A stretch of 38,662 bases of DNA from a virus (IMGVR_UViG_2695420482_000015), one strand, 5' to 3'; positions 1 through 37,850 are shown, counted from the stretch's first letter. Numbers and translations are program-made. The notes: generated by a model not told the origin, from the letters alone.

Positions 1-1518
1 TCATTCACCCTCCTGATGCGTGGTAGCGGTCCCATTGAAGGGCAAAATAAAATCCCCCAAACAGAAAACAGATTCTTCAGCGACGTAAATAAGCTGACCG
101 TTCAAGCGCAGTGAAACGGGCGCAGAAGTTCGAATCGCAATACGCTGCGCGTCGAGAGTGACCTGTAATTCGCAGCCCTGCCAGAACAGAGGGAAAGACA
201 ACTGTTGCCACTGCTCAGGTAACGCCGGATTGAGATGTAATTCACCGTCACGCACGCTCACCCCGGCAAAACCCTGAATCGCCCCCAGCCAGATAGCGCC
301 AGTTGCGGCAGCGTGGGTACCGTCATCACAGCTATGTGGATCAGCACCAAGATCGATTTCAGTCCCCTCGCGCCAGAACTGATAACTTTGGGTCAGCAGG
401 CCACAGCGTGCGGCAACAATGCCGTGGATTGCTTTACTTAATGACGAGTCGTGAATAGTGCGCGGTTCATAAAATTGCAGATAGGCAAGACACGATGCCG
501 CTGAGAACTGCTCCGGCAGCATGTAATTGAGCATCACCACATCAGCTTGTTTGAGGATCTGCATCTCGTTCACTTCTGCGCGTGAATAATCCAGCAGAAT
601 GGTTTGCTTCCCCGCCGCCGCTTTGTATTTCGCCAGATTAATCACCGGCTTAGCCATAAACGAATCATCCTGCGGCAAAACGCCGTCGGGCTGAATTTCT
701 GGCAGCCGCAGTTCTTTGAGGTACATTTCTGCACGATGAATAAACGCGTCGTCGCTACAGCCAAACTGACGAGCGATATTCAGCGCCTGCTGGACGTTGT
801 AATACGCCATATAGCTGGTGAAGGCGTTATTATTGACATGTTCGGTATATTCGTCTGGCCCAATAACATCATGAATTTCCAGACGGTCGTTAACCCTCAC
901 CGCGCGGCTAATCCAGAACTTTGCCGTCTCCAGAAGTAGCGCCATGCCTTCATGAGCAATGAAACTTTCATCCCCCGTGGTCCGCCAGTATTGAATAACC
1001 GCCCAGGCGATATCGGCCACCAGATGATGTTCCGCCTGCGCAGAGGCCACTTTTTGCCGCAACCCGGTACGAATGTTAATGGCAGCAAATTCCGGCGTCT
1101 CTTCTTCGCCGCTACGCGCGCTTTCCCACGGAAATAGCGCGCCCTGCCAGCCGTTGCGTCGCGCTTTCTCCTGCGCGCCAGGCAAGTTGTGCCAGCGATA
1201 ACGCAGTAAACTTCGGGCAACCATCGGATCGCTAAACAGATGGAACGGTAGCAAAAATACTTCTGTATCCCAGAAAACGTGGCCTTTGTAGCCTTCGCCG
1301 GTTAAACCTTTCGCCGCAATGCTGCTGCGCTCATCGTGGGCAGGCGTCATGATGCGCAGGTGATAAAGCGCATAATCTAACGCTTGCTGATCGTGCGCAT
1401 CGCCGCCGTTTACCGTGATACGACGTTTCTGCCACCATTGACGCCAGTTTTCTGTTGATGCTGCAAGAAGTTGGTCGTAACTCTGCTGCGCGCTGATGCG
1501 CCGCGCGATAAATGCACT
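1..1518 (-). CDS. ycjT: GH65-family glycoside phosphorylase (kojibiose phosphorylase YcjT-like), C-terminal ~505 codons; gene interrupted by prophage insertion
   Basis: ORF 1..1350 translation has GH65 catalytic-domain character (GHVFWDTEVF motif). The same frame stays open upstream to ~1518 with plausible protein sequence, then stops at the prophage junction. N-terminal ~250 codons are absent from the window. Symbol is from memory of the E. coli protein, not a search. Confidence 0.7.
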   Translation of the reverse strand, partial: SAFIARRISAQQSYDQLLAASTENWRQWWQKRRITVNGGDAHDQQALDYALYHLRIMTPAHDERSSIAAKGLTGEGYKGHVFWDTEVFLLPFHLFSDPMVARSLLRYRWHNLPGAQEKARRNGWQGALFPWESARSGEEETPEFAAINIRTGLRQKVASAQAEHHLVADIAWAVIQYWRTTGDESFIAHEGMALLLETAKFWISRAVRVNDRLEIHDVIGPDEYTEHVNNNAFTSYMAYYNVQQALNIARQFGCSDDAFIHRAEMYLKELRLPEIQPDGVLPQDDSFMAKPVINLAKYKAAAGKQTILLDYSRAEVNEMQILKQADVVMLNYMLPEQFSAASCLAYLQFYEPRTIHDSSLSKAIHGIVAARCGLLTQSYQFWREGTEIDLGADPHSCDDGTHAAATGAIWLGAIQGFAGVSVRDGELHLNPALPEQWQQLSFPLFWQGCELQVTLDAQRIAIRTSAPVSLRLNGQLIYVAEESVFCLGDFILPFNGTATTHQEGE

Positions 1519-1571
1519 CTATCTTGTGCGATAAATGGCATCCACGCGGCGTTTCATTATTTGAAAAAGAA

Positions 1572-2144
1572 TTACATTTCAGGTTGCGTTATGACAGTCC
1601 CAACAGGGTGATAGCGGTAGATCGTTGACAGTCCAATATCATAGATAATTGCCAGCCGCTTTCTGTCATACCCTTTCTGGAGCAATCTTGCGATCTGCTC
1701 ATGCTGCTCCTTCGTCAGTTTCGGGCGACGTCCTCCAACTCTTCCTTGTGCTCGCGCAGCAGCCAGTCCAGCCAGCGTGCGCTCAACTATCAGTTCACGC
1801 TCCATTTCTGCCAGTGCACCCATCATATGAAAAAAGAACCTTCCCATCGGAGTGCTGGTATCGATTGAATCCGTCAGACTGCGAAAATTGACACCTTTTG
1901 CGCGTAGCTCTTCTGTGAGAGCAATGAGGTGTTTCATTCTTCTACCCAACCGATCCAGCTTCCAGACCACCAATGTATCCCCTCTTTTAAGGCACTTTAA
2001 AGCGCGTTTCAGGCCTGGTCGTTCCGACTTGGTTCCGCTCATTTTGTCCTCAAAAATCTGTTCACATCCTGCGCACATTAATGCATTGCGTTGCAAATCT
2101 GTGTTTTGGTCATTTGTTGACACACGTATGTAGCCAATCAGCAT
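1572..2144 (-). CDS. gin: Serine DNA invertase (Gin/Hin/Pin family)
   Basis: Translation from internal Met (MLIGYIRVSTNDQNTDLQRNAL...) matches Mu Gin almost residue for residue at the N-terminus, including the catalytic serine context and C-terminal HTH. Lies next to the invertible fibre segment. Confidence 0.95.
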   Translation of the reverse strand: MLIGYIRVSTNDQNTDLQRNALMCAGCEQIFEDKMSGTKSERPGLKRALKCLKRGDTLVVWKLDRLGRRMKHLIALTEELRAKGVNFRSLTDSIDTSTPMGRFFFHMMGALAEMERELIVERTLAGLAAARAQGRVGGRRPKLTKEQHEQIARLLQKGYDRKRLAIIYDIGLSTIYRYHPVGTVITQPEM

Positions 2145-2200
2145 TAAAAATACTCCCTTTTGAGTGGTTAAAGTACTGAGATAATGTGGGGAGGATTTGA

Positions 2201-2224
2201 GAGATAAACGTTGGTTTAGGAGAA
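2201..2224. other. gix/hix-like inversion crossover site (gin-proximal)
   Basis: gagataaacgttggtttaggagaa; its reverse complement ttctcctaaaccaacgtttatctc matches the site at 4174..4199 (shared core ttctccNaaaccaaNgt) and resembles gix/hix half-sites (AAACC..GGTTT). Confidence 0.7.
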
Positions 2225-2713
2225 GCGGCGAAAAGGGATGTGGGCACGACAGTCGGAACCGTTGCCGCTGGTGATGATTTACGCATAATAGGAGCACTTC
2301 AAAAGGCAAATAATCTTTATGAGTTAACAAATAAATCTGACGCAAGAGCTAATCTTGGGTTAGGAACCGTTGCAACAAAAAACGTGGGAAATAGTGCTGG
2401 GCAAATACCTGATATGTCTTACTGGTCTTCCGTATCGGGTGGCGTTAATTTCCCTAATGGATTCCAGATGCGATTCGGTGCTATCGCTGGTAATGGTGGA
2501 AAATTATTTTCTACGCCATTTACAAATCAGTGCTATGGCATTGTTTTCGGACAAACATATGTAGCCAACTACTGGATGTTCAGCCCGATGTACAGAGCAT
2601 CTGATCTGAGTAATACCGGTTTTGCATTCATTAACAAAACCTGGTCTGGCGTTCCGGGGACAGGTGCTCAGGACGCTGGTGAATCAGTTTTTTATATTGC
2701 AGTAGGGTATTAA
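2213..2713 (+). CDS. Alternate tail fibre C-terminal domain (S'v-like, promoterless; expressed only after inversion)
   Basis: Frame is open from the crossover site (…NVGLGEAAKRDVGTTVGT…) with no proper start of its own. Sits inside the invertible segment and is followed by a tail fibre assembly gene. Confidence 0.6.
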   Translation, partial: GLGEAAKRDVGTTVGTVAAGDDLRIIGALQKANNLYELTNKSDARANLGLGTVATKNVGNSAGQIPDMSYWSSVSGGVNFPNGFQMRFGAIAGNGGKLFSTPFTNQCYGIVFGQTYVANYWMFSPMYRASDLSNTGFAFINKTWSGVPGTGAQDAGESVFYIAVGY

Positions 2714-2714
2714 T

Positions 2715-3158
2715 ATGGAAATGGTTTATAGCGCCTCAAATAATAGTTTTTTCGCTAAAAATGATGTGGCGAAATATGAACAGGCCGGATGGGAACTTGC
2801 TGATATTGTCGAAGTGACATATGACACTTACCTGGAATTTATTGAAGACAGAACGTTGCAAGGGAAAGTACGCATCGCGGGTGATGATGGCCTTCCCACC
2901 TGGGGGGAAATTCCACCGCCAACTCATGAGGAACAAATTGCCGCAGCCGAACTGGAAAAGCAGCAATTGATTAATCAGGTCAACGAATACATATACAGTA
3001 AGCAATGGCCTGGTAAAGCAGCGATTGGTCGCCTGAAAGGTGAGGAACTGGCGCAATATAATTTGTGGCTGGATTATCTGGACGCACTGGAACTGGTCGA
3101 TACTTCCGGTGCGCCAGATATTGAATGGCCTACGCCTCCGGCAGTTCAGGCCAGATGA
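2715..3158 (+). CDS. Tail fibre assembly protein (alternate, U'-like)
   Basis: 147 aa; C-terminal motif NLWLDYLDALELVDTSGAPDIEWPTPP is typical of Tfa chaperones and parallels the C-terminus of the 3130..3723 protein. Confidence 0.8.
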   Translation: MEMVYSASNNSFFAKNDVAKYEQAGWELADIVEVTYDTYLEFIEDRTLQGKVRIAGDDGLPTWGEIPPPTHEEQIAAAELEKQQLINQVNEYIYSKQWPGKAAIGRLKGEELAQYNLWLDYLDALELVDTSGAPDIEWPTPPAVQAR

Positions 3159-3723
3159 CGTCCGGCGCTGTGCTGGTATCTGTTGCCGTCACCGCGTCAA
3201 TATAATCCAGCACAGCGTTAAGTCGGGTGTTTTCTGGCTGCGTCAGCTTCCGCCCGGCCTGTAATTTCAGTTGAATCAGACTGATGGAAGCCATTGCAGC
3301 ATCAATCAGCGACTGGCGCTGTGCTTCTGCAGCTTCTACTGCGGCGCTATGCTGTGCCTCGGTATCCGTCACCCATTTCTCACCATCCCATTTATCGTAT
3401 GGCGTTAACGGTGAAAGCGTGACATAACCGTCTTTGATGGCACCGATATAATCCACTGTAACAGCTGCGCCATTTTCAGTTGAGTAAACGGTCTCATTGC
3501 GATGGTCTTCTTCATGGCTCCATCCCTTACCCGTAAATACTGCCACTCTTCCCGGAATGTATTCGCCCGGGTCAATACCAGTGGAACAAACGGGCATACT
3601 TACGCCAGTATTAATATATTCATCAGACCAGCCCGTATATTCAGACGTTACTGCATCATAATAATAACAACGCATATCACCCGGCACTGTAGCCAGCCCA
3701 TTTTCATCAAAAACAGGTTTCAT
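3130..3723 (-). CDS. Tail fibre assembly protein (U-like)
   Basis: 197 aa; C-terminal NAVLDYIDAVTATDTSTAPDVIWPELP Tfa motif; immediately downstream of the fibre gene. Confidence 0.8.
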   Translation of the reverse strand: MKPVFDENGLATVPGDMRCYYYDAVTSEYTGWSDEYINTGVSMPVCSTGIDPGEYIPGRVAVFTGKGWSHEEDHRNETVYSTENGAAVTVDYIGAIKDGYVTLSPLTPYDKWDGEKWVTDTEAQHSAAVEAAEAQRQSLIDAAMASISLIQLKLQAGRKLTQPENTRLNAVLDYIDAVTATDTSTAPDVIWPELPEA

Positions 3724-5177
3724 TATGCAGCCCTCACAATATAATTAAAGGCGATGTTACGTGGACGGTTTTCATTAGCTGTTGGCACGACACGAGAGGC
3801 GTCGAATCCAAGGTCATCGGTTTTGCCTATATCAGTTGTGTTATTCGGCATTCTCGCAGATCGTGTTCCTGCATCATAAAAAGCCCCTCTGATTGCATCA
3901 AAAGACATACCGATCCCGCCATCTGCGAATCCCTCAATATTTCTTATTGCATCCCCCTGTGAAGATAATAATTGTCGCCCGGCATCCACACCACGTCCGT
4001 CATCCCAGCCACGAATAAATTCACCGCGTAAATCCGGCAATTTATTTGTCGGATAAACCTTTGCCAGTTCCGGGTATTCTTCAGCAGAAAAAGCCGCACC
4101 GTTGCATTTCAGCCAGCCAGTAGGCGGTGTGGCTGAAGGCCACGGAACAGGCACACCAACGGGTAATGCCGAACCTTCTCCCAAACCAAGGTAATTGAGG
4201 ACATCTTTTATACTGCCCTTAGCGATAATAGCGCGACCAATAGCTGTAAGGGTTGCCAGCTCTGCGCGGTCTGCTCCGGTAAAATAAGGCAACCGATCTG
4301 CTGCAGTGGCAAGTCCTGCCAGAGCAGTGAGCGTGGCATCTGCCGGTTGTTTTCCGTTTGCCAGATCGTATGCAGCCTTGACCGCTTTCGGTGTGGCGGC
4401 CAGTATTTCAGACGTGCTGTTGATGGCACTGCTCAATTGTACGGTGCCTTTTGCCGTCAGCGAGGCAGCAGGCACTCCCGTTATCTGACTCCACGGGTGA
4501 GTGTGGCTGACGGGCGCCTTGCCGGCTGCAAGGTCGTATGCAGCCTTGACCGCCTTCGGCGTGGCAGCCTCAGTTTCTGATTGACTGTCCGTGGCGCTGC
4601 TCAGTTGTACGGTGCCTTTTGCCGTCAGCGAGGCAGCAGGCACTCCCGTTATCTGACTCCACGGGTGAGTGTGGCTGACGGGCGCCTTGCCGGCTGCAAG
4701 GTCGTATGCAGCCTTGACCGCCTTCGGCGTGGCAGCCTCAGTTTCTGATTGACTGTCCGTGGCGCTGCTCAGTTGTACGGTGCCTTTTGCCGTCAGTGAA
4801 GCCGCAGGCACTCCCGTTATCTGACTCCACGGGTGAGTGTGGCTGGCAGGCGCCTTGCCGGCTGCCAGGTCGTATGCAGCCTTGACCGCTTTTGGTGTGG
4901 CGGCCAGCGTTTCAGAGGTGCTGTTGGTGGCACTGCTCAGTTGGGTGAACCCCTTAGCTGTCAGTGTCGCGTCCGGGTGGTTACGGGAACGTACGTGTTC
5001 AGCCAGTGACTGTGCGGCTTCCTCCGTTTTCTTCTTCAGCCATTTCGTCCTGTTTGCCAGTTGCCGGGGGGCTCGATTTGATATCCCGTCTGCACCACCC
5101 AGAACCGGATCTGATGTCTCCAGTTGATAGATATTTTCTTCCCACTTTTCTGTTTCATTCAGGTTTCCCATAATCAA
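3723..5177 (-). CDS. Tail fibre protein (S/H-like), constant N-terminal part plus invertible C-terminal part
   Basis: 484 aa with four tandem 56-aa fibre repeats (…ATPKAVKAAYDLAAGK…SHTHPWSQITG…). The gix-like site lies within the coding sequence. Confidence 0.9.
   Translation of the reverse strand: MIMGNLNETEKWEENIYQLETSDPVLGGADGISNRAPRQLANRTKWLKKKTEEAAQSLAEHVRSRNHPDATLTAKGFTQLSSATNSTSETLAATPKAVKAAYDLAAGKAPASHTHPWSQITGVPAASLTAKGTVQLSSATDSQSETEAATPKAVKAAYDLAAGKAPVSHTHPWSQITGVPAASLTAKGTVQLSSATDSQSETEAATPKAVKAAYDLAAGKAPVSHTHPWSQITGVPAASLTAKGTVQLSSAINSTSEILAATPKAVKAAYDLANGKQPADATLTALAGLATAADRLPYFTGADRAELATLTAIGRAIIAKGSIKDVLNYLGLGEGSALPVGVPVPWPSATPPTGWLKCNGAAFSAEEYPELAKVYPTNKLPDLRGEFIRGWDDGRGVDAGRQLLSSQGDAIRNIEGFADGGIGMSFDAIRGAFYDAGTRSARMPNNTTDIGKTDDLGFDASRVVPTANENRPRNIAFNYIVRAA
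4174..4199. other. gix/hix-like inversion crossover site (inside tail fibre gene)
   Basis: ccttctcccaaaccaaggtaattgag, in inverted orientation to 2201..2224. Falls on the LGLGE codons of the fibre; the alternate cassette carries VGLGE at its site. Confidence 0.7.
4296..4967. repeat. Tandem 168-bp repeats (about 4 copies) encoding 56-aa tail fibre repeats
   Basis: Near-identical DNA copies with period 168 seen directly (e.g. acggtgccttttgccgtcag at ~4441 and ~4609); flanking copies are more diverged. Confidence 0.8.
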
Positions 5178-26876: not shown

Positions 26877-27647
26877 ATGAAAATGCAGACATTACCCATC
26901 GTTCCATGGATTGGTGGCAAACGCCGCCTTGCAAAACACATCCTGCCGCTGTTTCCGGCGCATGAATGTTATGTGGAGCCGTTTTGTGGGGCAGCAGCGC
27001 TCTATTTTCTTAAGGTACCCGGCAAGATCGAAGTCATTAATGATATCAACGGTGAACTGGTGAACCTGTATCGGGTGGTAAAACATCATCTGGAAGAATT
27101 TGTACGCCAGTTCAAATGGGCGCTGGTCAGCCGGCAGATCTACAAATGGCTGCAGATCACCCCGGAAGAAACACTGACGGATATCCAGCGTGCAGCACGG
27201 TTCTACTACCTTCAGAAGCAGGCGTTTGGAGGCAAGGTGGCGGAGCACAGCTTTGGTACCTCCACCATATCCCCGCCACGCTTCAACCTGCTGCGTATTG
27301 AAGAAGAACTGTCAGCGGCACACCTGCGGCTTTCCAGAACGGTCATAGAACACATGGACTGGCAACAGTGCATAGAACGATATGATCGCCCGCATACGTT
27401 GTTCTACTGTGACCCTCCATACTGGGGAACGGAAGGTTATGGTGTGGAGTTCGGACTAGAAAATTATGATCATATGGCAGATTTAGCACGCAGGATCAAA
27501 GGGAAGATGATTATATCGGTGAACGATATCCCGGAAATGCGGCAGGCATTCAACGGTCTAAATATTCAGTCGGTTGATATCAGCTACAACCTCAAGATCA
27601 CTGGCAAATCCAGTCGCAAGAAGGAACTCATTATCCTCAACTTTTGA
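26877..27647 (+). CDS. DNA N6-adenine methyltransferase (Dam-like, orphan)
   Basis: 256 aa; N-terminal WIGGKRRL and FCGAAALYF AdoMet-binding motifs and DPPY catalytic motif (FYCDPPYWGT); no adjacent restriction endonuclease gene recognised. Confidence 0.85.
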   Translation: MKMQTLPIVPWIGGKRRLAKHILPLFPAHECYVEPFCGAAALYFLKVPGKIEVINDINGELVNLYRVVKHHLEEFVRQFKWALVSRQIYKWLQITPEETLTDIQRAARFYYLQKQAFGGKVAEHSFGTSTISPPRFNLLRIEEELSAAHLRLSRTVIEHMDWQQCIERYDRPHTLFYCDPPYWGTEGYGVEFGLENYDHMADLARRIKGKMIISVNDIPEMRQAFNGLNIQSVDISYNLKITGKSSRKKELIILNF

Positions 27648-28842
27648 CCGAATAGTAAGACTTCATGCAGTGAATCAAGTACTGCATGAAGTCAAGGGCT
27701 GGTTTTGTGTACCAAAAATAAACAGTGATAGCGGTAATAATTCCCATAACTAGAACACCACGTATAATCCAGAACGTACGTTTCTGCGTGTCTAGTCGCG
27801 CAGAAATACTGCTAAATACACCAGCCACGTCATCTTTAATGAAGGAATATTCCTTATTAATCTGTTTTTCTTTGTATTCAATTTCTTCGCCTAAGGCCTT
27901 TATAGATTGCATCTGGTTCGAAAGTGCCAGCCAGATTAACGTTGCAGCAAAAATGCATCCCAGAAGAATTATTGTGTTTGTTATCCCTTGGCCTGACCAT
28001 TTCGTAGCCACTTTGAATTGGGTAGCTACGATAACAGAGGCAACAGGAATGCCAAGTATATGGTTCTGGATATCTGAAAACGCTTTGTGGATTTTACCCA
28101 TTTCTTCGACTTTTGCAGCACGCAGTTGATCCATTACTTTGTCATAAGAGAATCCAGAAGAGTAGATACGATACCCTTTCAGAAACTTTTCATGCAGACG
28201 CTGAATATTGTCCAGTAAATAAGCGAATACTAGAGGTGAATCAATTCCATCACTAACTGCTTGGATACTTTCAATCAGAATATCTAGCTTCTGATCCTTA
28301 TGGGTATCATCATTGAAACAAGCTATAAGGTTATCAAGATACTCTCTTTGCAAATTTTGTACATTTTCTGCAGCGAAGTGCGGTAATAGCTTGATAACTT
28401 CTTTTTTCAGAAAAACTAACTGACAAGTTGAGTTATCAAAGTAGGCCGCGGCCTCTTTTAGCAGGTTAACGAACTCGAGAATCTTCCGGTAGTTGCTGAT
28501 GAAAACGGGGATATCTTCATCATCATTACGAAACTTTGTTTCTAGGATGAAGTAATTAGCTGGCTCAAGGCACTGATGCTTTGGAGCATTTAGCAATTTT
28601 TCATGGGTGGAAAACACAAGTCCCAGTCCACTCCGTGGTGACGTCACACGTAGGATGATCGTGTTACCTGGAGCGATAGTGCCTGTATCAATAGAAAGAC
28701 CATATTCACGAGGATCATCAAGCAAAGTATCAACCAGATCACAATCGGACTGATCTAAGAGCAACAGCGAACCGACACGAAACCCCTCTTGGAATTCCAT
28801 ACGACGATACAGATCTGTCAGCATCTCAAATGAAATCGCCAC
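27637..28842 (-). CDS. Hypothetical protein with soluble N-terminal domain and two C-terminal TM helices (candidate effector)
   Basis: 401 aa; GTG start 2 nt after the upstream stop with GAGG RBS (translational coupling); TM segments ITNTIILLGCIFAATLIWLALS and FWIIRGVLVMGIITAITVYFWY; AT-rich. Confidence 0.7.
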   Translation of the reverse strand: MAISFEMLTDLYRRMEFQEGFRVGSLLLLDQSDCDLVDTLLDDPREYGLSIDTGTIAPGNTIILRVTSPRSGLGLVFSTHEKLLNAPKHQCLEPANYFILETKFRNDDEDIPVFISNYRKILEFVNLLKEAAAYFDNSTCQLVFLKKEVIKLLPHFAAENVQNLQREYLDNLIACFNDDTHKDQKLDILIESIQAVSDGIDSPLVFAYLLDNIQRLHEKFLKGYRIYSSGFSYDKVMDQLRAAKVEEMGKIHKAFSDIQNHILGIPVASVIVATQFKVATKWSGQGITNTIILLGCIFAATLIWLALSNQMQSIKALGEEIEYKEKQINKEYSFIKDDVAGVFSSISARLDTQKRTFWIIRGVLVMGIITAITVYFWYTKPALDFMQYLIHCMKSYYSVKS

Positions 28843-28844
28843 GA

Positions 28845-29852
28845 TTAAACCTCAGTCATCCACATTTCCCTAAATTCTTCAGGTACATTACGTAGGGTGA
28901 TAATATTTGTTTCCGGATCATAATCAATATAGCCTTCAGTTTTCCCTTCCCGGTCAAACTTAAGTTCCCAATATTTAGACTTGCCTTTAAAAGATACCAG
29001 AGCCCGAATGACTCGACCATCAGGAACGAAGCCATCCGATAACTCCAACTCTTCAGCAGCAAGTTTACCAGATAACTCCTCGGGAGCCTGGGGCCAAATG
29101 GCATTAACAAGGGTTTCAAGACTAAGTGGTTCACCAGCCTTACTTAGTGCATGTAAGTGTTCAAACGCACTCTTAAGAAATGCATCTTTTTCAGCGCCGT
29201 CAAGTCCTTTCTCTGCCGCAAATGCTTTTAAAACGTCACGTAACTTTTCAGACTCTCGTTTGGCGATTAAGACATCATTACAGCCGAGGAACTGTTTAAA
29301 ATAGTTTGAAACATTACCTTGCCCCTTAAGAAAACTGATATAGCGCTCTGCGCCACTTTCCCACGCGGTTAAGTCAATGCGCCCAGCCATACGCAGCTTA
29401 GCAATATCAAGATAGGTACTATCTTGGATGTTAAAATCATCTGTGACAGTGGATCCAATGGTAGCGCTTACAATAGCTATCAACAGGTGTTCATTGTGTC
29501 CTATCACGATATTTGCAAAAAGAACATAACCACCAGTAGCCATGTTTTCTCGCTGAGAACGTTCCGTCAGGTGATGCATCATTCGGCAGGAACTTTGGTA
29601 GAAATCATCAACACCTTCGAGAAAGTCCCCAGCCATTCGTTCCATAGGATAGTTATCCGTATCGCCTTCAAAATAGCCATAACCTTTACCTGTGCGTCCT
29701 GCATATTTTGCACAAATATCGTTTATAAGGCGCTGGGAGGCTTCAGTAACTAGACCTTCTTCAGGACTCAATCTCTCAGAAGCGTCTCCATTTTGTTGTT
29801 TGTCTAAAATGTGAACTACAACGTGTTTAACTTCAATGGTCTGCTCAGACAT
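28845..29852 (-). CDS. Nucleoid-associated protein NdpA/YejK-like (NA37 family) paralog, phage-encoded
   Basis: 335 aa, same length as E. coli YejK; recalled YejK blocks align (GGYVLF…LLIAIVS; …YLDIAKLRMAGRIDLTAWESGAERYISFLKGQG…; C-terminal …YDPETNIITLR…). From memory, no search run. Confidence 0.65.
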   Translation of the reverse strand: MSEQTIEVKHVVVHILDKQQNGDASERLSPEEGLVTEASQRLINDICAKYAGRTGKGYGYFEGDTDNYPMERMAGDFLEGVDDFYQSSCRMMHHLTERSQRENMATGGYVLFANIVIGHNEHLLIAIVSATIGSTVTDDFNIQDSTYLDIAKLRMAGRIDLTAWESGAERYISFLKGQGNVSNYFKQFLGCNDVLIAKRESEKLRDVLKAFAAEKGLDGAEKDAFLKSAFEHLHALSKAGEPLSLETLVNAIWPQAPEELSGKLAAEELELSDGFVPDGRVIRALVSFKGKSKYWELKFDREGKTEGYIDYDPETNIITLRNVPEEFREMWMTEV

Positions 29853-29922
29853 TAGCTATCCACCTTATTTTTTATTGCTTAATGGCAAATAATTTCTGCT
29901 ATATGTTCTCGTTAGGAACACA

Positions 29923-30330
29923 TTAACCCACATTTTTTAACCGCTCAATCGTTGCGGATAATTCCTTCAGTTGTTTTTCCATCTCAATCACACGCTGTTT
30001 TTCTTCAGCGCCTCGCATGAGATCTCGCCGAACCTCAGGATCTAACTGGTTTAGAAGTTCAAGCATTTTAAGGTCTGACGGGCTGAATTGATGTTGTGTT
30101 GGTACAGCAACAATTTCTTTAGATGGAATATGTTCTTTACCGGTAAGTAGCCAATCGATCGATACACCCAAATGGGTGCTTAGCGCAACAAGAGCCTCTG
30201 CGTTTGGTTCTCTCTCTCCACGCAAATAGTTTTGAAGTGAGCGATATGGAATTTTTGATAAGTTAGATAATGCCTTTATTGTCATGCCATTAGCATCCAT
30301 CACTTCACGCAATCTCTCTTTTGTACTCAT
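29923..30330 (-). CDS. Prophage repressor, XRE-family HTH (c-like)
   Basis: Start at internal Met (MSTKERLREV…), 135 aa; N-terminal HTH_XRE and C-terminal coiled coil; divergent from the ner-like early operon. Confidence 0.75.
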   Translation of the reverse strand: MSTKERLREVMDANGMTIKALSNLSKIPYRSLQNYLRGEREPNAEALVALSTHLGVSIDWLLTGKEHIPSKEIVAVPTQHQFSPSDLKMLELLNQLDPEVRRDLMRGAEEKQRVIEMEKQLKELSATIERLKNVG

Positions 30331-30346
30331 TTGAACATATCTCAAT

Positions 30347-30374
30347 TTGACACACTCATTTGGGTGTGTACAAT
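30347..30374 (+). promoter_or_regulatory. Early promoter (Pe-like): TTGACA, 16-nt spacer, TACAAT, with operator-like inverted repeat cacac-N8-gtgtg in the spacer
   Basis: Consensus -35 and near-consensus -10 read directly, ~45 nt upstream of the ner-like ATG, between divergent repressor and ner-like genes. Confidence 0.6.
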
Positions 30375-30418
30375 AGACCCAATAGAGTACATCATAACCT
30401 AACAGGAACACGGTGCAT

Positions 30419-30643
30419 ATGAACAAACAACAAGTTCGGGCACGGCTGGTTGAACGAGGCAGTAGCTTGCGCCAGTTCGCGCTTAACGCGGGCTATGAAC
30501 CACGAACAGTCACCCAGGCAGTCAGTCGCTGGGCTGGTAAAAGTGAACTACCTCGCGGTCGTTTGACTTATCGGATTTTGCGAGATCTATCGGTTGCAAT
30601 AGGTAAAGAAGTTACCCCCGGTATCCTTAAGGAGGCGTCATGA
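30419..30643 (+). CDS. ner: Ner-like DNA-binding protein
   Basis: ~74 aa; ATG at 30419 preceded by AGGAAC; layout resembles Mu Ner/Nlp; first gene of the early operon. Confidence 0.6.
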   Translation: MNKQQVRARLVERGSSLRQFALNAGYEPRTVTQAVSRWAGKSELPRGRLTYRILRDLSVAIGKEVTPGILKEAS

Positions 30644-36747: not shown

Positions 36748-37427
36748 CAGACCAGAATAAACACATTGAGAAACTGAAAAAGTTGCTGGCGCTGGCCGCA
36801 TCCGGCAACCCGCACGAGGCCGCTCTGGCACTGCGCCGAGCCCGTAAACTGATGGATGTTCACGGCATCACACATTCCGACATTGCTATGAGTGATATTG
36901 ATGAAACCATCAGTCACTACTGGCCGACAGGCAGTCTCCGTCCACCGCGCTACATGCTGGGCCTGATGAACATCATCCGCGAGGTATTTGGTGTTAACTC
37001 CATCATTCACCCCGGCACGCATCCGTCTGTGGGGTTCTACGGCAACCGGGAACGTGCGGCACTGGCTGCATACACCTGGGAAGTGCTGGCCCGTCAGCTG
37101 AAAAAGGCGCGTCAGCAGTATATCAGTGCACAGAACAAAAGAATAAAAACCGCCACCCGCACCAGCCGTGGAGACCAGTTTGCCGAAGGCTGGGTGCTGG
37201 CCGTTATCAGTGAAATACAGTCCTTTGCCCTGACCGATGATGAGCGTGAACTGATGCAGCAGTGGCTGGAACATAAATACCCGCAGACGCAAACCACCAG
37301 GGCGCGTAAACCGGGAAGAAGCCGCAATGGCGACGCCTCGCGCTATGCGGGGTTTCGTGAAGGGCAGAACGTCAGACTGCACCGCCCGGTCAGTGGGCAG
37401 GAACAACAGAAACTGGAGGCCAGATGA
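36744..37427 (+). CDS. Conserved phage protein
   Basis: Start at internal ATG (MTDQNKHIEKLKKLLALA…) overlapping the upstream stop; ~227 aa. Confidence 0.5.
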   Translation: MTDQNKHIEKLKKLLALAASGNPHEAALALRRARKLMDVHGITHSDIAMSDIDETISHYWPTGSLRPPRYMLGLMNIIREVFGVNSIIHPGTHPSVGFYGNRERAALAAYTWEVLARQLKKARQQYISAQNKRIKTATRTSRGDQFAEGWVLAVISEIQSFALTDDERELMQQWLEHKYPQTQTTRARKPGRSRNGDASRYAGFREGQNVRLHRPVSGQEQQKLEAR

Positions 37428-37654
37428 TTACGCTATCAGGTAAAAGCCGGAAATTAAAAGCCTGCCGAATATCTGCCAGATACCTTTTTGCCCGCGCCTT
37501 TTTTAAGAACGTCAGGCCGGGGATCACAATTGGTGTTATTGCCGGACGCGAACAGGTTGAAAAATACATGTCAGGTGCATGGTGGAATAACGACCCTGTC
37601 ATTGCTGCCCGTAATATTCATATCGAATGGGGAGGTATTCAGAATGACTACTGA
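37424..37654 (+). CDS. Hypothetical small early protein
   Basis: 76 aa ORF. Confidence 0.4.
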   Translation: MITLSGKSRKLKACRISARYLFARAFFKNVRPGITIGVIAGREQVEKYMSGAWWNNDPVIAARNIHIEWGGIQNDY

Positions 37655-37850
37655 AACCATTGTCTGTTTTCTTTTCTGGTATATGTACGCAGGATCATGC
37701 AGCGCAAGACTTCATCGTTCCCTGGGCTATGGCAGGCACTACGACACCGCGCATTACATCCTGTACATGACCGCCGTCATGTTGTTCTGGCCAGTCCCCC
37801 TGCCAGCTGCAACCGACATTGTTGCCGACAGACTGAAAAAAAGGAGATGA
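37644..37850 (+). CDS. Small membrane protein
   Basis: 68 aa from internal Met (MTTETIVCFLFWYMYAG…), two hydrophobic segments. Confidence 0.4.
   Translation: MTTETIVCFLFWYMYAGSCSARLHRSLGYGRHYDTAHYILYMTAVMLFWPVPLPAATDIVADRLKKRR

Follow-up and report, generated by a model that had tools for sequence, protein, structure and literature searches.

The window analysed here is the whole of the viral sequence IMGVR_UViG_2695420482_000015 (38,662 nucleotides, nt), which its gene content and similarities mark as a BcepMu-like transposable prophage of Escherichia coli. Between positions 27640 and 30420 it becomes markedly AT-rich, and this stretch is probably the immunity and moron region of the prophage, built of two modules: an immunity module around a CI-type repressor, and a two-gene cargo cassette that would be expressed in the lysogen as an anti-phage (superinfection) defence of the DS-1/type II PANGU kind. 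The cassette encodes a nucleoid-associated protein (NAP; gene A, protein A) and a membrane protein of 401 amino acids (aa; gene B, protein B):

28845..29852, minus strand: gene A, YejK/NA37-family nucleoid-associated protein, 335 aa (Pfam NA37 at 1e-80 over the full length; phrog_3767)
27637..28842, minus strand: gene B, membrane protein, 401 aa (phrog_5023 at 6e-143; NCBIfam DS1_2_antiphage at 76 bits, cutoff 315)

The stop codon of gene A lies 2 nt before the start of gene B, a Shine-Dalgarno sequence (AAGGTGGA) precedes the ATG of gene A, and the final three codons of gene B overlap, tail to tail, the end of the convergent dam gene. RefSeq annotates the two products only as "hypothetical protein" and "nucleoid-associated protein".

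Remote homology of the cargo pair to DS-1

DS-1 (DefensePredictor system 1, ID D390) is an experimentally validated two-gene defence unit of an E. coli isolate, in which DS-1A (WP_000355468.1), an NA37 protein of 391 aa, is followed 3 nt on by DS-1B (WP_000150292.1, 404 aa) (PMC13092281). In the screen reported there, DS-1 lowered plating by more than 7 logs for Bas1, 2.7 logs for Bas26 and 1.7 logs for Bas3 and T3 (PMC13092281, Table S7). We took the DS-1 sequences, gene order and 3-nt gap from Tables S6/S8 of PMC13092281, and used the NCBIfam equivalogs NF053868 and NF053869. Two adjacent window genes gave paired sub-threshold matches to these models, protein A to DS1_1_antiphage (64 bits, E 1.4e-17, cutoff 330) and protein B to DS1_2_antiphage (76 bits, E 3e-21). 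In BLASTP, protein A is 23% identical to DS-1A over 196 aa (E 8e-9), and protein B is 23% identical to DS-1B over 302 aa (E 6e-10). A profile of 45 sequences of the 401-aa family aligned with the single DS-1B sequence at an hhalign probability of 95% (95.2%), and with a profile of 28 DS-1B family sequences at 99.2% (E 3e-19, 350 columns). What defines the DS-1 superfamily, namely homology of both proteins, the order A then B and a short gap (here 2 nt), was all found in the window. The controls passed the NCBIfam DS-1 models (DS-1A at 451 bits, DS-1B at 375, P0168 at 371), as did relatives of DS-1 with 38% identity; against DS1_2, three further members of the 401-aa family scored 65-71 bits and failed the cutoff. 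These comparisons indicate that the window proteins are remote homologues of DS-1A and DS-1B, forming a sister family and not an equivalog.

Protein A matches the NCBIfam YejK model at 186 bits (cutoff 341) and the YejK structure (PDB 9be2) at E 6.8e-30 over residues 4-330. Protein B, for which Pfam gave no match, is predicted to begin with an acidic cytoplasmic alpha/beta domain (about residues 1-230) and to continue in long helices (AlphaFold2 model, predicted local distance difference test score 82.3), with three hydrophobic segments at residues 262-280, 290-308 and 356-374. Its N-terminal domain carries a net charge of -12 (isoelectric point, pI, 4.96; family median charge -8), which is acidic and not distinctive. 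We regard protein A as a putative DS-1A-like or Pag2A-like sensor and protein B as a putative DS-1B-like or Pag2B-like effector, Pag2A and Pag2B being the components of type II PANGU (see Discussion).

The membrane character of protein B also invites a different reading, in which the pair is a membrane superinfection-exclusion or lysis-timing module unlike DS-1 and PANGU, for example one that blocks DNA injection, and the NA37 protein is a regulator only. Many prophage membrane proteins and lipoproteins encoded by morons block DNA injection. The pair adjoins the lysis genes and lies downstream of the repressor, and alternative cargos nearby are lipoprotein- or membrane-like (cluster C1, below). 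However, the partner is homologous to DS-1B over its full length and strictly paired with a DNA-binding NAP, and the published type II PANGU is abortive-infection-like and needs both genes (bioRxiv 10.64898/2026.04.06.716658). We consider such an exclusion or lysis module unlikely.

The pair as a mobile unit

In every context inspected, an NA37 gene immediately precedes the gene for the 401-aa homologue. The contexts comprise divergent BcepMu-like prophages (E. coli, Mixta, Pectobacterium, Jeongeupia and Terasakiispira), the slot between Q and holin of lambdoid prophages in either orientation (Morganella, Salmonella and E. coli), a Paraburkholderia island where the pair stands beside an Mrr-type restriction gene, and Shewanella. 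The two proteins co-diverge, A being the more conserved (A/B identities of 97/94, 92/80, 67/52, 63/47 and so on to 26/27%), and in 11 of 12 contexts the GC content of the pair lies 6-17 points under that of its flanks. The superfamily numbers about 1,280 representatives at 50% identity and is also present in a few sequenced temperate phages. The pair is a strict two-gene unit that moves between transposable and lambdoid phages. A promoter or leader borne by the cassette and conserved across contexts was considered and rejected: the window shares the 70-bp leader only with a near-identical Mixta prophage, and the promoter and terminator scans are at chance level.

The same survey bears on the possibility that protein A serves the phage itself, either as an architectural cofactor of Mu-type transposition or by silencing or organising the DNA of the prophage or the host, with the membrane partner anchoring or regulating it. 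Mu transposition requires host NAPs (HU and IHF), the element is a transposable phage, and protein A stands nearer to YejK, by both the model score and the match to 9be2, than to DS-1A. Yet the cassette occurs in only 19 complete E. coli genomes, against 634 that carry its flanks (3% of prophages of this type), so the phage can complete its life cycle without it. The pair recurs in lambdoid prophages, which do not transpose, and beside a restriction gene in a chromosomal island. Protein A always comes with its membrane partner, and a validated defence pair contains homologues of both. A service to the phage's own transposition or DNA organisation therefore seems very improbable, and a defence function remains the preferred reading.

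Two exchangeable modules in a variable slot

Alignments to relatives yielded two sets of breakpoints, 27628/29903 and 27588/30640, which indicate that the AT-rich stretch is two independently exchangeable modules with separate histories, cargo at 27629-29902 and immunity at 29903-30639. In Klebsiella phage KP12 and E. coli 1437, homology is lost from 27628 (the dam stop codon) to 29903 (20 bp beyond the repressor stop codon); both have the same repressor type (82-84% nucleotide identity) and an identical Ner-like protein, and both carry a single 175-aa lipoprotein-like gene where the window has the pair. In LR-31, SCU-101, PhiKM and 504211, which have other repressor/Ner sets and different cargo or none, homology returns only at 30640. 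E. coli 2020S05-235 has only the C-terminal half of the repressor in common with the window. In E. coli A35 and Pectobacterium betavasculorum, conversely, the gene pair is the same and the repressors ahead of it are unrelated. The histories of cargo and immunity are separate: the same repressor is found with different cargo, and the same cargo with different repressors.

We sampled 80 related prophages by means of a transposase anchor (Enterobacterales, Burkholderiales, Neisseriales, Pseudomonas and others), and calculated interval statistics for the 46 in which both anchors, holin and early operon, could be placed. The interval between them is 1.0-6.0 kb long, and its GC content falls below that of the prophage backbone in 46 of 46 (by 6.2 points on average, and by 8 to 13 points in close relatives). 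Open reading frames (ORFs) of the slot fall into 138 clusters, 94 of them singletons, and wide recurrence is limited to the repressor, dam and a single cargo family (C1). The majority of the occupants are unannotated. Conserved flanks around variable and unrelated contents are what characterises an accessory (moron/defence) hotspot.

Immediately after the repressor, the cargo most often encountered is C1 (24 of 53 surveyed loci, for instance L004 2396-2923, L001 5636-6169 and L008 2369-3355). Its lipoprotein- or membrane-anchored products have no Pfam or PADLOC match, and the family is a candidate for superinfection exclusion. C1 and the NA37 pair occur together in E. coli A35 (L010) and Pectobacterium (L030), where C1 follows the repressor and precedes the pair; in the window lineage C1 has given way to the pair. 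In a Sapientia aquatica prophage (L092 4819-5910) the slot holds a gene with a PD-T4-2_A/GmrSD_N domain (PADLOC E 9e-156); here a distant relative carries a validated defence gene in the corresponding place. When eight other cargo families were searched with PADLOC and Pfam, nothing was found except DUF2441 and this PD-T4-2_A/GmrSD_N gene. The slot of E. coli 2020S05-235 (L005 2399-3689; cluster C22, also in L023) encodes a 297-aa protein, which also occurs in Limnobaculum, and then a 145-aa protein with several transmembrane (TM) segments; further AT-rich cargo genes encode proteins of 203 aa (L008 1737-2348) and 275 aa (L027 4606-5433). The C22, 203-aa and 275-aa cargos have no Pfam or PADLOC match and are uncharacterised candidates.

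A wider proposition, which we advance tentatively and think unlikely, is that the slot, which runs from the lysis genes to the repressor, is a lineage-wide defence hotspot of BcepMu-like phages, from Enterobacterales to Burkholderia and Pseudomonas, whose many unannotated occupants, such as the recurrent C1 family and dozens of singletons, are largely undiscovered anti-phage systems, and that the pair is a functional and distinct NAP-sensor subtype with a mechanism of self-tolerance. If this were true, the pair must not be triggered by its own phage, whose replicative transposition shreds and rearranges the host chromosome; self-tolerance would be implied, for example through shut-off together with the repressor or through protection by phage Gam.

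A preliminary description of the window had placed an accessory operon and the immunity repressor in this stretch, and the gene content agrees. It had also suggested comparing related prophages for a variable hotspot, and across the 46 loci and 138 ORF clusters the position is indeed one, occupied by different cargo. Its further proposal, a mosaic module acquired horizontally, holds in so far as the region is mosaic and exchanged; arrival as one joint module is not supported, since the breakpoints delimit two independent units.

Base composition and codon usage

GC content is 0.411 in 27640-30420 and 0.550 in the remaining window (binomial z of the deficit -14.7), the lowest value among all segments of the same size (mean 0.541, standard deviation 0.042). 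Two-state likelihood fitting placed the low-GC segment at 27461-30430 and improved on a one-state model by about 106 nats. GC at third codon positions (GC3) is 0.394 in the 401-aa gene (z -3.1), 0.349 in the NA37 gene (z -3.8) and 0.341 in the repressor gene (z -3.9), against 0.613 +/- 0.070 in 41 backbone genes, and all three island genes are outliers in GC3 and in codon usage. Their pooled distance from the backbone in relative synonymous codon usage (RSCU) is 5.41, the maximum among 2000 random backbone subsets of similar size being 2.90. To define the genes for GC3 and RSCU, RefSeq proteins from an identical prophage of E. coli were mapped onto the window by tblastn; the window and that genome are not collinear. 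The Ner-like gene (GC3 0.43, z -2.6) forms a shoulder of the same trough, and the early regulatory genes rise stepwise in GC3 through 0.43, 0.49 and 0.55.

The AT-richness noted in the preliminary description is thus confirmed, and sliding GC and codon usage, which it had proposed to check, both deviate strongly. The right-hand edge that it gave, 30420, agrees with the fit; on the left, low GC begins about 180 bp before 27640, within the 3′ end of dam. The contrast that it estimated by eye is real, its figures overstated: the backbone has 52-60% GC in 500-bp windows, not 60-65%, and the island 33-53% in 100-bp windows.

Low GC could in principle be purely functional or regulatory, a product of promoters and operators, H-NS-silenced DNA or membrane-protein codons in a region ancestral to the lineage. 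The low GC of the slot in all 46 relatives whatever its contents, the AT-richness of every alternative repressor and the gradual GC3 shoulder of the early regulatory genes would fit such a view. Against it, the sharp homology breakpoints and the unrelated replacement genes amount to actual exchange, the deficit extends beyond intergenic DNA to third codon positions (GC3 0.34-0.39), the same pair is found in unrelated phage types, and the survey of contexts already implies that cargo and repressor are incongruent with the tree of transposase and structural genes. A purely compositional origin is accordingly improbable; taken less strictly, the compositional and exchange views are compatible, the slot being old while its contents turn over. 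Because the slot is AT-rich lineage-wide, low GC is weak evidence of recent acquisition, and the alternative repressors and cargos examined in E. coli, all AT-rich (GC 0.39-0.47), count against a single recent acquisition. Low GC is a lineage-wide property of the hotspot, not proof of one recent joint event, and such an anomaly is the ordinary signature of prophage accessory and immunity DNA, a well known kind of feature.

Elsewhere in the window, hyp9, a small early-region gene at 37424-37648, is a GC3 outlier too (0.44, z -2.5), and the gene adjoining it (37644-37841) shares only 41% identity with the corresponding gene of the RIVM_C036569 prophage, which is near-identical elsewhere; 37424-37841 is another small mosaic patch within the semi-essential early region.

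The immunity module and the borders of the cassette

The immunity module and the parts that adjoin the cassette are as follows:

29923..30330, minus strand: immunity repressor, 135 aa, helix-turn-helix (HTH) protein of HTH_3/CI type (Pfam HTH_3 at 3.9e-11, Phage_CI_repr at 5e-6; PHROG repressor families)
30331..30418, no strand: divergent regulatory region (promoter scan and inverted repeats)
30419..30643, plus strand: Ner/Cro-like small DNA-binding protein (phrog_8503 at 5e-35; weak HTH_35)
29853..29922, minus strand: spacer of 70 bp between repressor and gene A (alignment, sequence, promoter/terminator scan, breakpoints)
26877..27647, plus strand: orphan Dam-family adenine methyltransferase (Pfam MethyltransfD12 at 7e-28; TIGR00571 dam at 117 bits)

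The mechanical ORF of the repressor reaches TTG 30426; RefSeq (WP_000104670.1) starts it at ATG 30330, which leaves the promoter/operator region free. In that region the promoter scan found a strong rightward early promoter (TTGACA-16-TACAAT, 30347-30374, 11 of 12 matches), whose spacer contains an operator-like palindrome, CACACTCATTTGGGTGTG (30351-30368). A second copy, CACCCAAATGGGTG (30164-30178), lies inside the repressor ORF, about 175 bp from the first. The palindrome is probably an operator, and its two copies suggest two repressor-binding sites and possible looping. The early operon opens with the Ner-like gene, which relatives with another immunity type have exchanged along with the repressor.

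The repressor gene is also bracketed by a 13-nt imperfect inverted repeat, TGTTCTCGTTAGG at 29904-29916 and CCTAACAGGAACA at 30398-30410 (85% complementary). Its left arm lies at the cargo/immunity breakpoint and includes a small hairpin that all relatives keep just past the repressor stop codon; the repeat could be a repressor site, an IHF site or chance. As a repeated site this GTGTTCCT-like motif was rejected, its 12 matches in the window (6.3 expected) not being significant.

Of the spacer, the 20 bp nearest the repressor (29903-29922) recur in relatives with other cargo and hold the small hairpin TGTTC-N7-GAACA, which is conserved; the other 50 bp are part of the cassette. Scans of the 70 bp, at chance level, predicted neither an intrinsic terminator nor a promoter. 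On the other side, dam forms the left flank of the cargo slot; it is semi-conserved, missing from many relatives, and in alignments the similarity to relatives with other cargo stops at its stop codon.

Identity and ends of the prophage

An E. coli chromosome matches the region at 100%, and there the tail, head and lysis genes lie on one strand, followed by dam, the two cargo genes and the HTH repressor, with an early operon divergent from the repressor that contains the Mu-type genes for a DDE transposase, an ExeA/MuB-like protein, Gam and Mor. The window is 94% identical in nucleotide sequence to Escherichia phage PhiKM, which is classified as a Bcepmuvirus, and its transposase is 69% identical in amino acids to those of Burkholderia cenocepacia prophages. 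Searches of Pfam, PHROG and NCBIfam give a concordant gene content. With a transposase, MuB-like ATPase, Gam, Mor, divergent repressor and DNA similarity all present, the window is a BcepMu-like (Bcepmuvirus-related) transposable prophage of E. coli. A scan of the whole window against Rfam returned zero matches.

The leftmost 1.35 kb (1-1350) encodes a glycoside hydrolase family 65 protein (Pfam 5e-139) and is host DNA, so that the left prophage end lies between about 1350 and about 1570. In E. coli RIVM_C036569 the otherwise identical region adjoins truncated hycH/hyfR; such a difference in insertion site fits a transposable phage. GC content dips a second time, less deeply, at about 1500-3000 (43-46%), where a gene for a Gin/Cin-like serine invertase is located (1572-2345, minus strand). 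Its neighbours are a tail-fibre gene (3723-5177) and genes for tail-fibre assembly that face both ways (2715-3158, plus strand; 3130-3723, minus strand), and 1572-5177 looks like an invertible host-range segment (cf. Mu G/Gin).

Discussion

The layout of the region suggests how the cassette would be used. The CI-type repressor gene points leftwards, divergent from the strong early promoter and the Ner-like gene, and this promoter would drive the early operon. The cassette is on the repressor strand, 70 bp downstream and with no terminator predicted between them, and it is therefore most likely expressed with the repressor in the lysogen, by read-through from the repressor promoter. Lambda rexAB, expressed with cI, is the analogue for such repressor-linked expression.

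For the action of the products we draw on PANGU, described in an April 2026 preprint from operons chosen by their closeness to defence islands (bioRxiv 10.64898/2026.04.06.716658). Its type II pairs a YejK-like NAP (Pag2A) with a TM effector (Pag2B) that has an acidic N-terminal ("DMK") domain and a C-terminal TM region; both genes are needed, and the phenotype is abortive-infection-like (bioRxiv 10.64898/2026.04.06.716658). The PANGU NAP departs from the nucleoid upon T4 infection, and the N-terminal domain of the partner binds the NAP with a dissociation constant of 19 nM (bioRxiv 10.64898/2026.04.06.716658). By analogy, the NA37 protein of the window would reside on the nucleoid and be freed as an infecting phage degrades or displaces the host DNA; it would then bind the acidic cytoplasmic domain of its membrane partner, whose helical and TM part may damage membrane function and so abort the infection.

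Several points weigh against this interpretation. Both proteins score below the DS-1 equivalog cutoffs at about 23% identity, protein A is nearer to housekeeping YejK than to DS-1A and has no DS-1A-like N-terminal zinc-ribbon extension, and PADLOC (2023) has no model for the pair. Acidity like that of the N-terminal domain of protein B (pI about 5) is ordinary among cytoplasmic proteins, which makes "DNA mimic" a putative label only, and fold searches with protein B against the PDB gave no significant match, only generic helical bundles. Co-transcription with the repressor is argued from spacing and from missing signals, in promoter and terminator scans that did no better than chance. The likeness to PANGU is one of architecture. 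Finally, phage protection was measured on DS-1 itself; a defence activity of the window's sister family is what homology and analogy suggest.

If the interpretation holds, two poorly annotated genes found in prophages of E. coli, Mixta, Pectobacterium, Salmonella, Morganella and others gain a probable function as a NAP-sensor defence. The cargo belongs to a defence superfamily described only in 2025-2026, and DS-1 becomes part of a larger superfamily of about 1,280 clusters at 50% identity. The slot itself is a precisely bounded cargo site in a widespread phage lineage, which can be mined for new defence genes.

Comparison with known systems

In DS-1 as in the window, a gene with an NA37/YejK domain comes first and a gene for a protein of about 400 aa follows after a gap of 2-3 nt; in the B proteins a conserved core motif aligns, as do the hydrophobic helices at the C-terminus. 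Both are AT-rich prophage morons, and DS-1-type pairs occupy the slot between Q and holin of lambdoid prophages in which homologues of the window pair also occur. The window pair itself lies in a transposable BcepMu-like prophage, downstream of the repressor, and its protein A, with 335 aa and no zinc-ribbon N-terminus (DS-1A has 391 aa), is more like canonical YejK. Housekeeping YejK of E. coli (NdpA; 9be2) belongs to the same fold family, has the same length (335-338 aa) and aligns with protein A from end to end. Protein A differs from it in being divergent (108 bits in phmmer), prophage-borne, AT-rich and always paired with a membrane protein.

The definition of type II PANGU asks for a bicistronic operon in which under 40 bp separate the genes and a YejK-like NAP is encoded first, and the window pair has this organisation (NA37 at 1e-80, 2-nt gap). 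Protein B, with its predicted acidic N-terminal domain in the cytoplasm and its hydrophobic C-terminal segments, may correspond to the type II partner, its acidity not being distinctive, and the tested system, PANGU-Ecu, is also from E. coli. The window pair is a prophage moron, whereas PANGU was picked near defence islands.

Kiwa consists of KwaA, a membrane sensor with four TM segments and a beta-barrel, and KwaB, a DNA binder with DUF4868 (PMC11785009). Like the window pair it couples an integral membrane protein to a non-specific DNA-binding protein. Membership of Kiwa was rejected, because the PADLOC match to KwaA is weak (E 8e-5, 21 bits, in the C-terminal hydrophobic part), the partner is NA37 and not DUF4868, and there is no fold match; Kiwa is an analogue only.

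Prophage defence genes linked to the repressor include lambda rexAB, BstA of phage BTP1 and sieB, and P2 and P4 have defence hotspots. The window pair has no sequence relationship to rexAB, BstA or sieB and belongs to another, BcepMu-like phage lineage, and its co-transcription with the repressor is something that we infer. What it shares with loci of the rexAB type is its place: accessory genes directly downstream of the immunity repressor, in a slot that varies among related phages.

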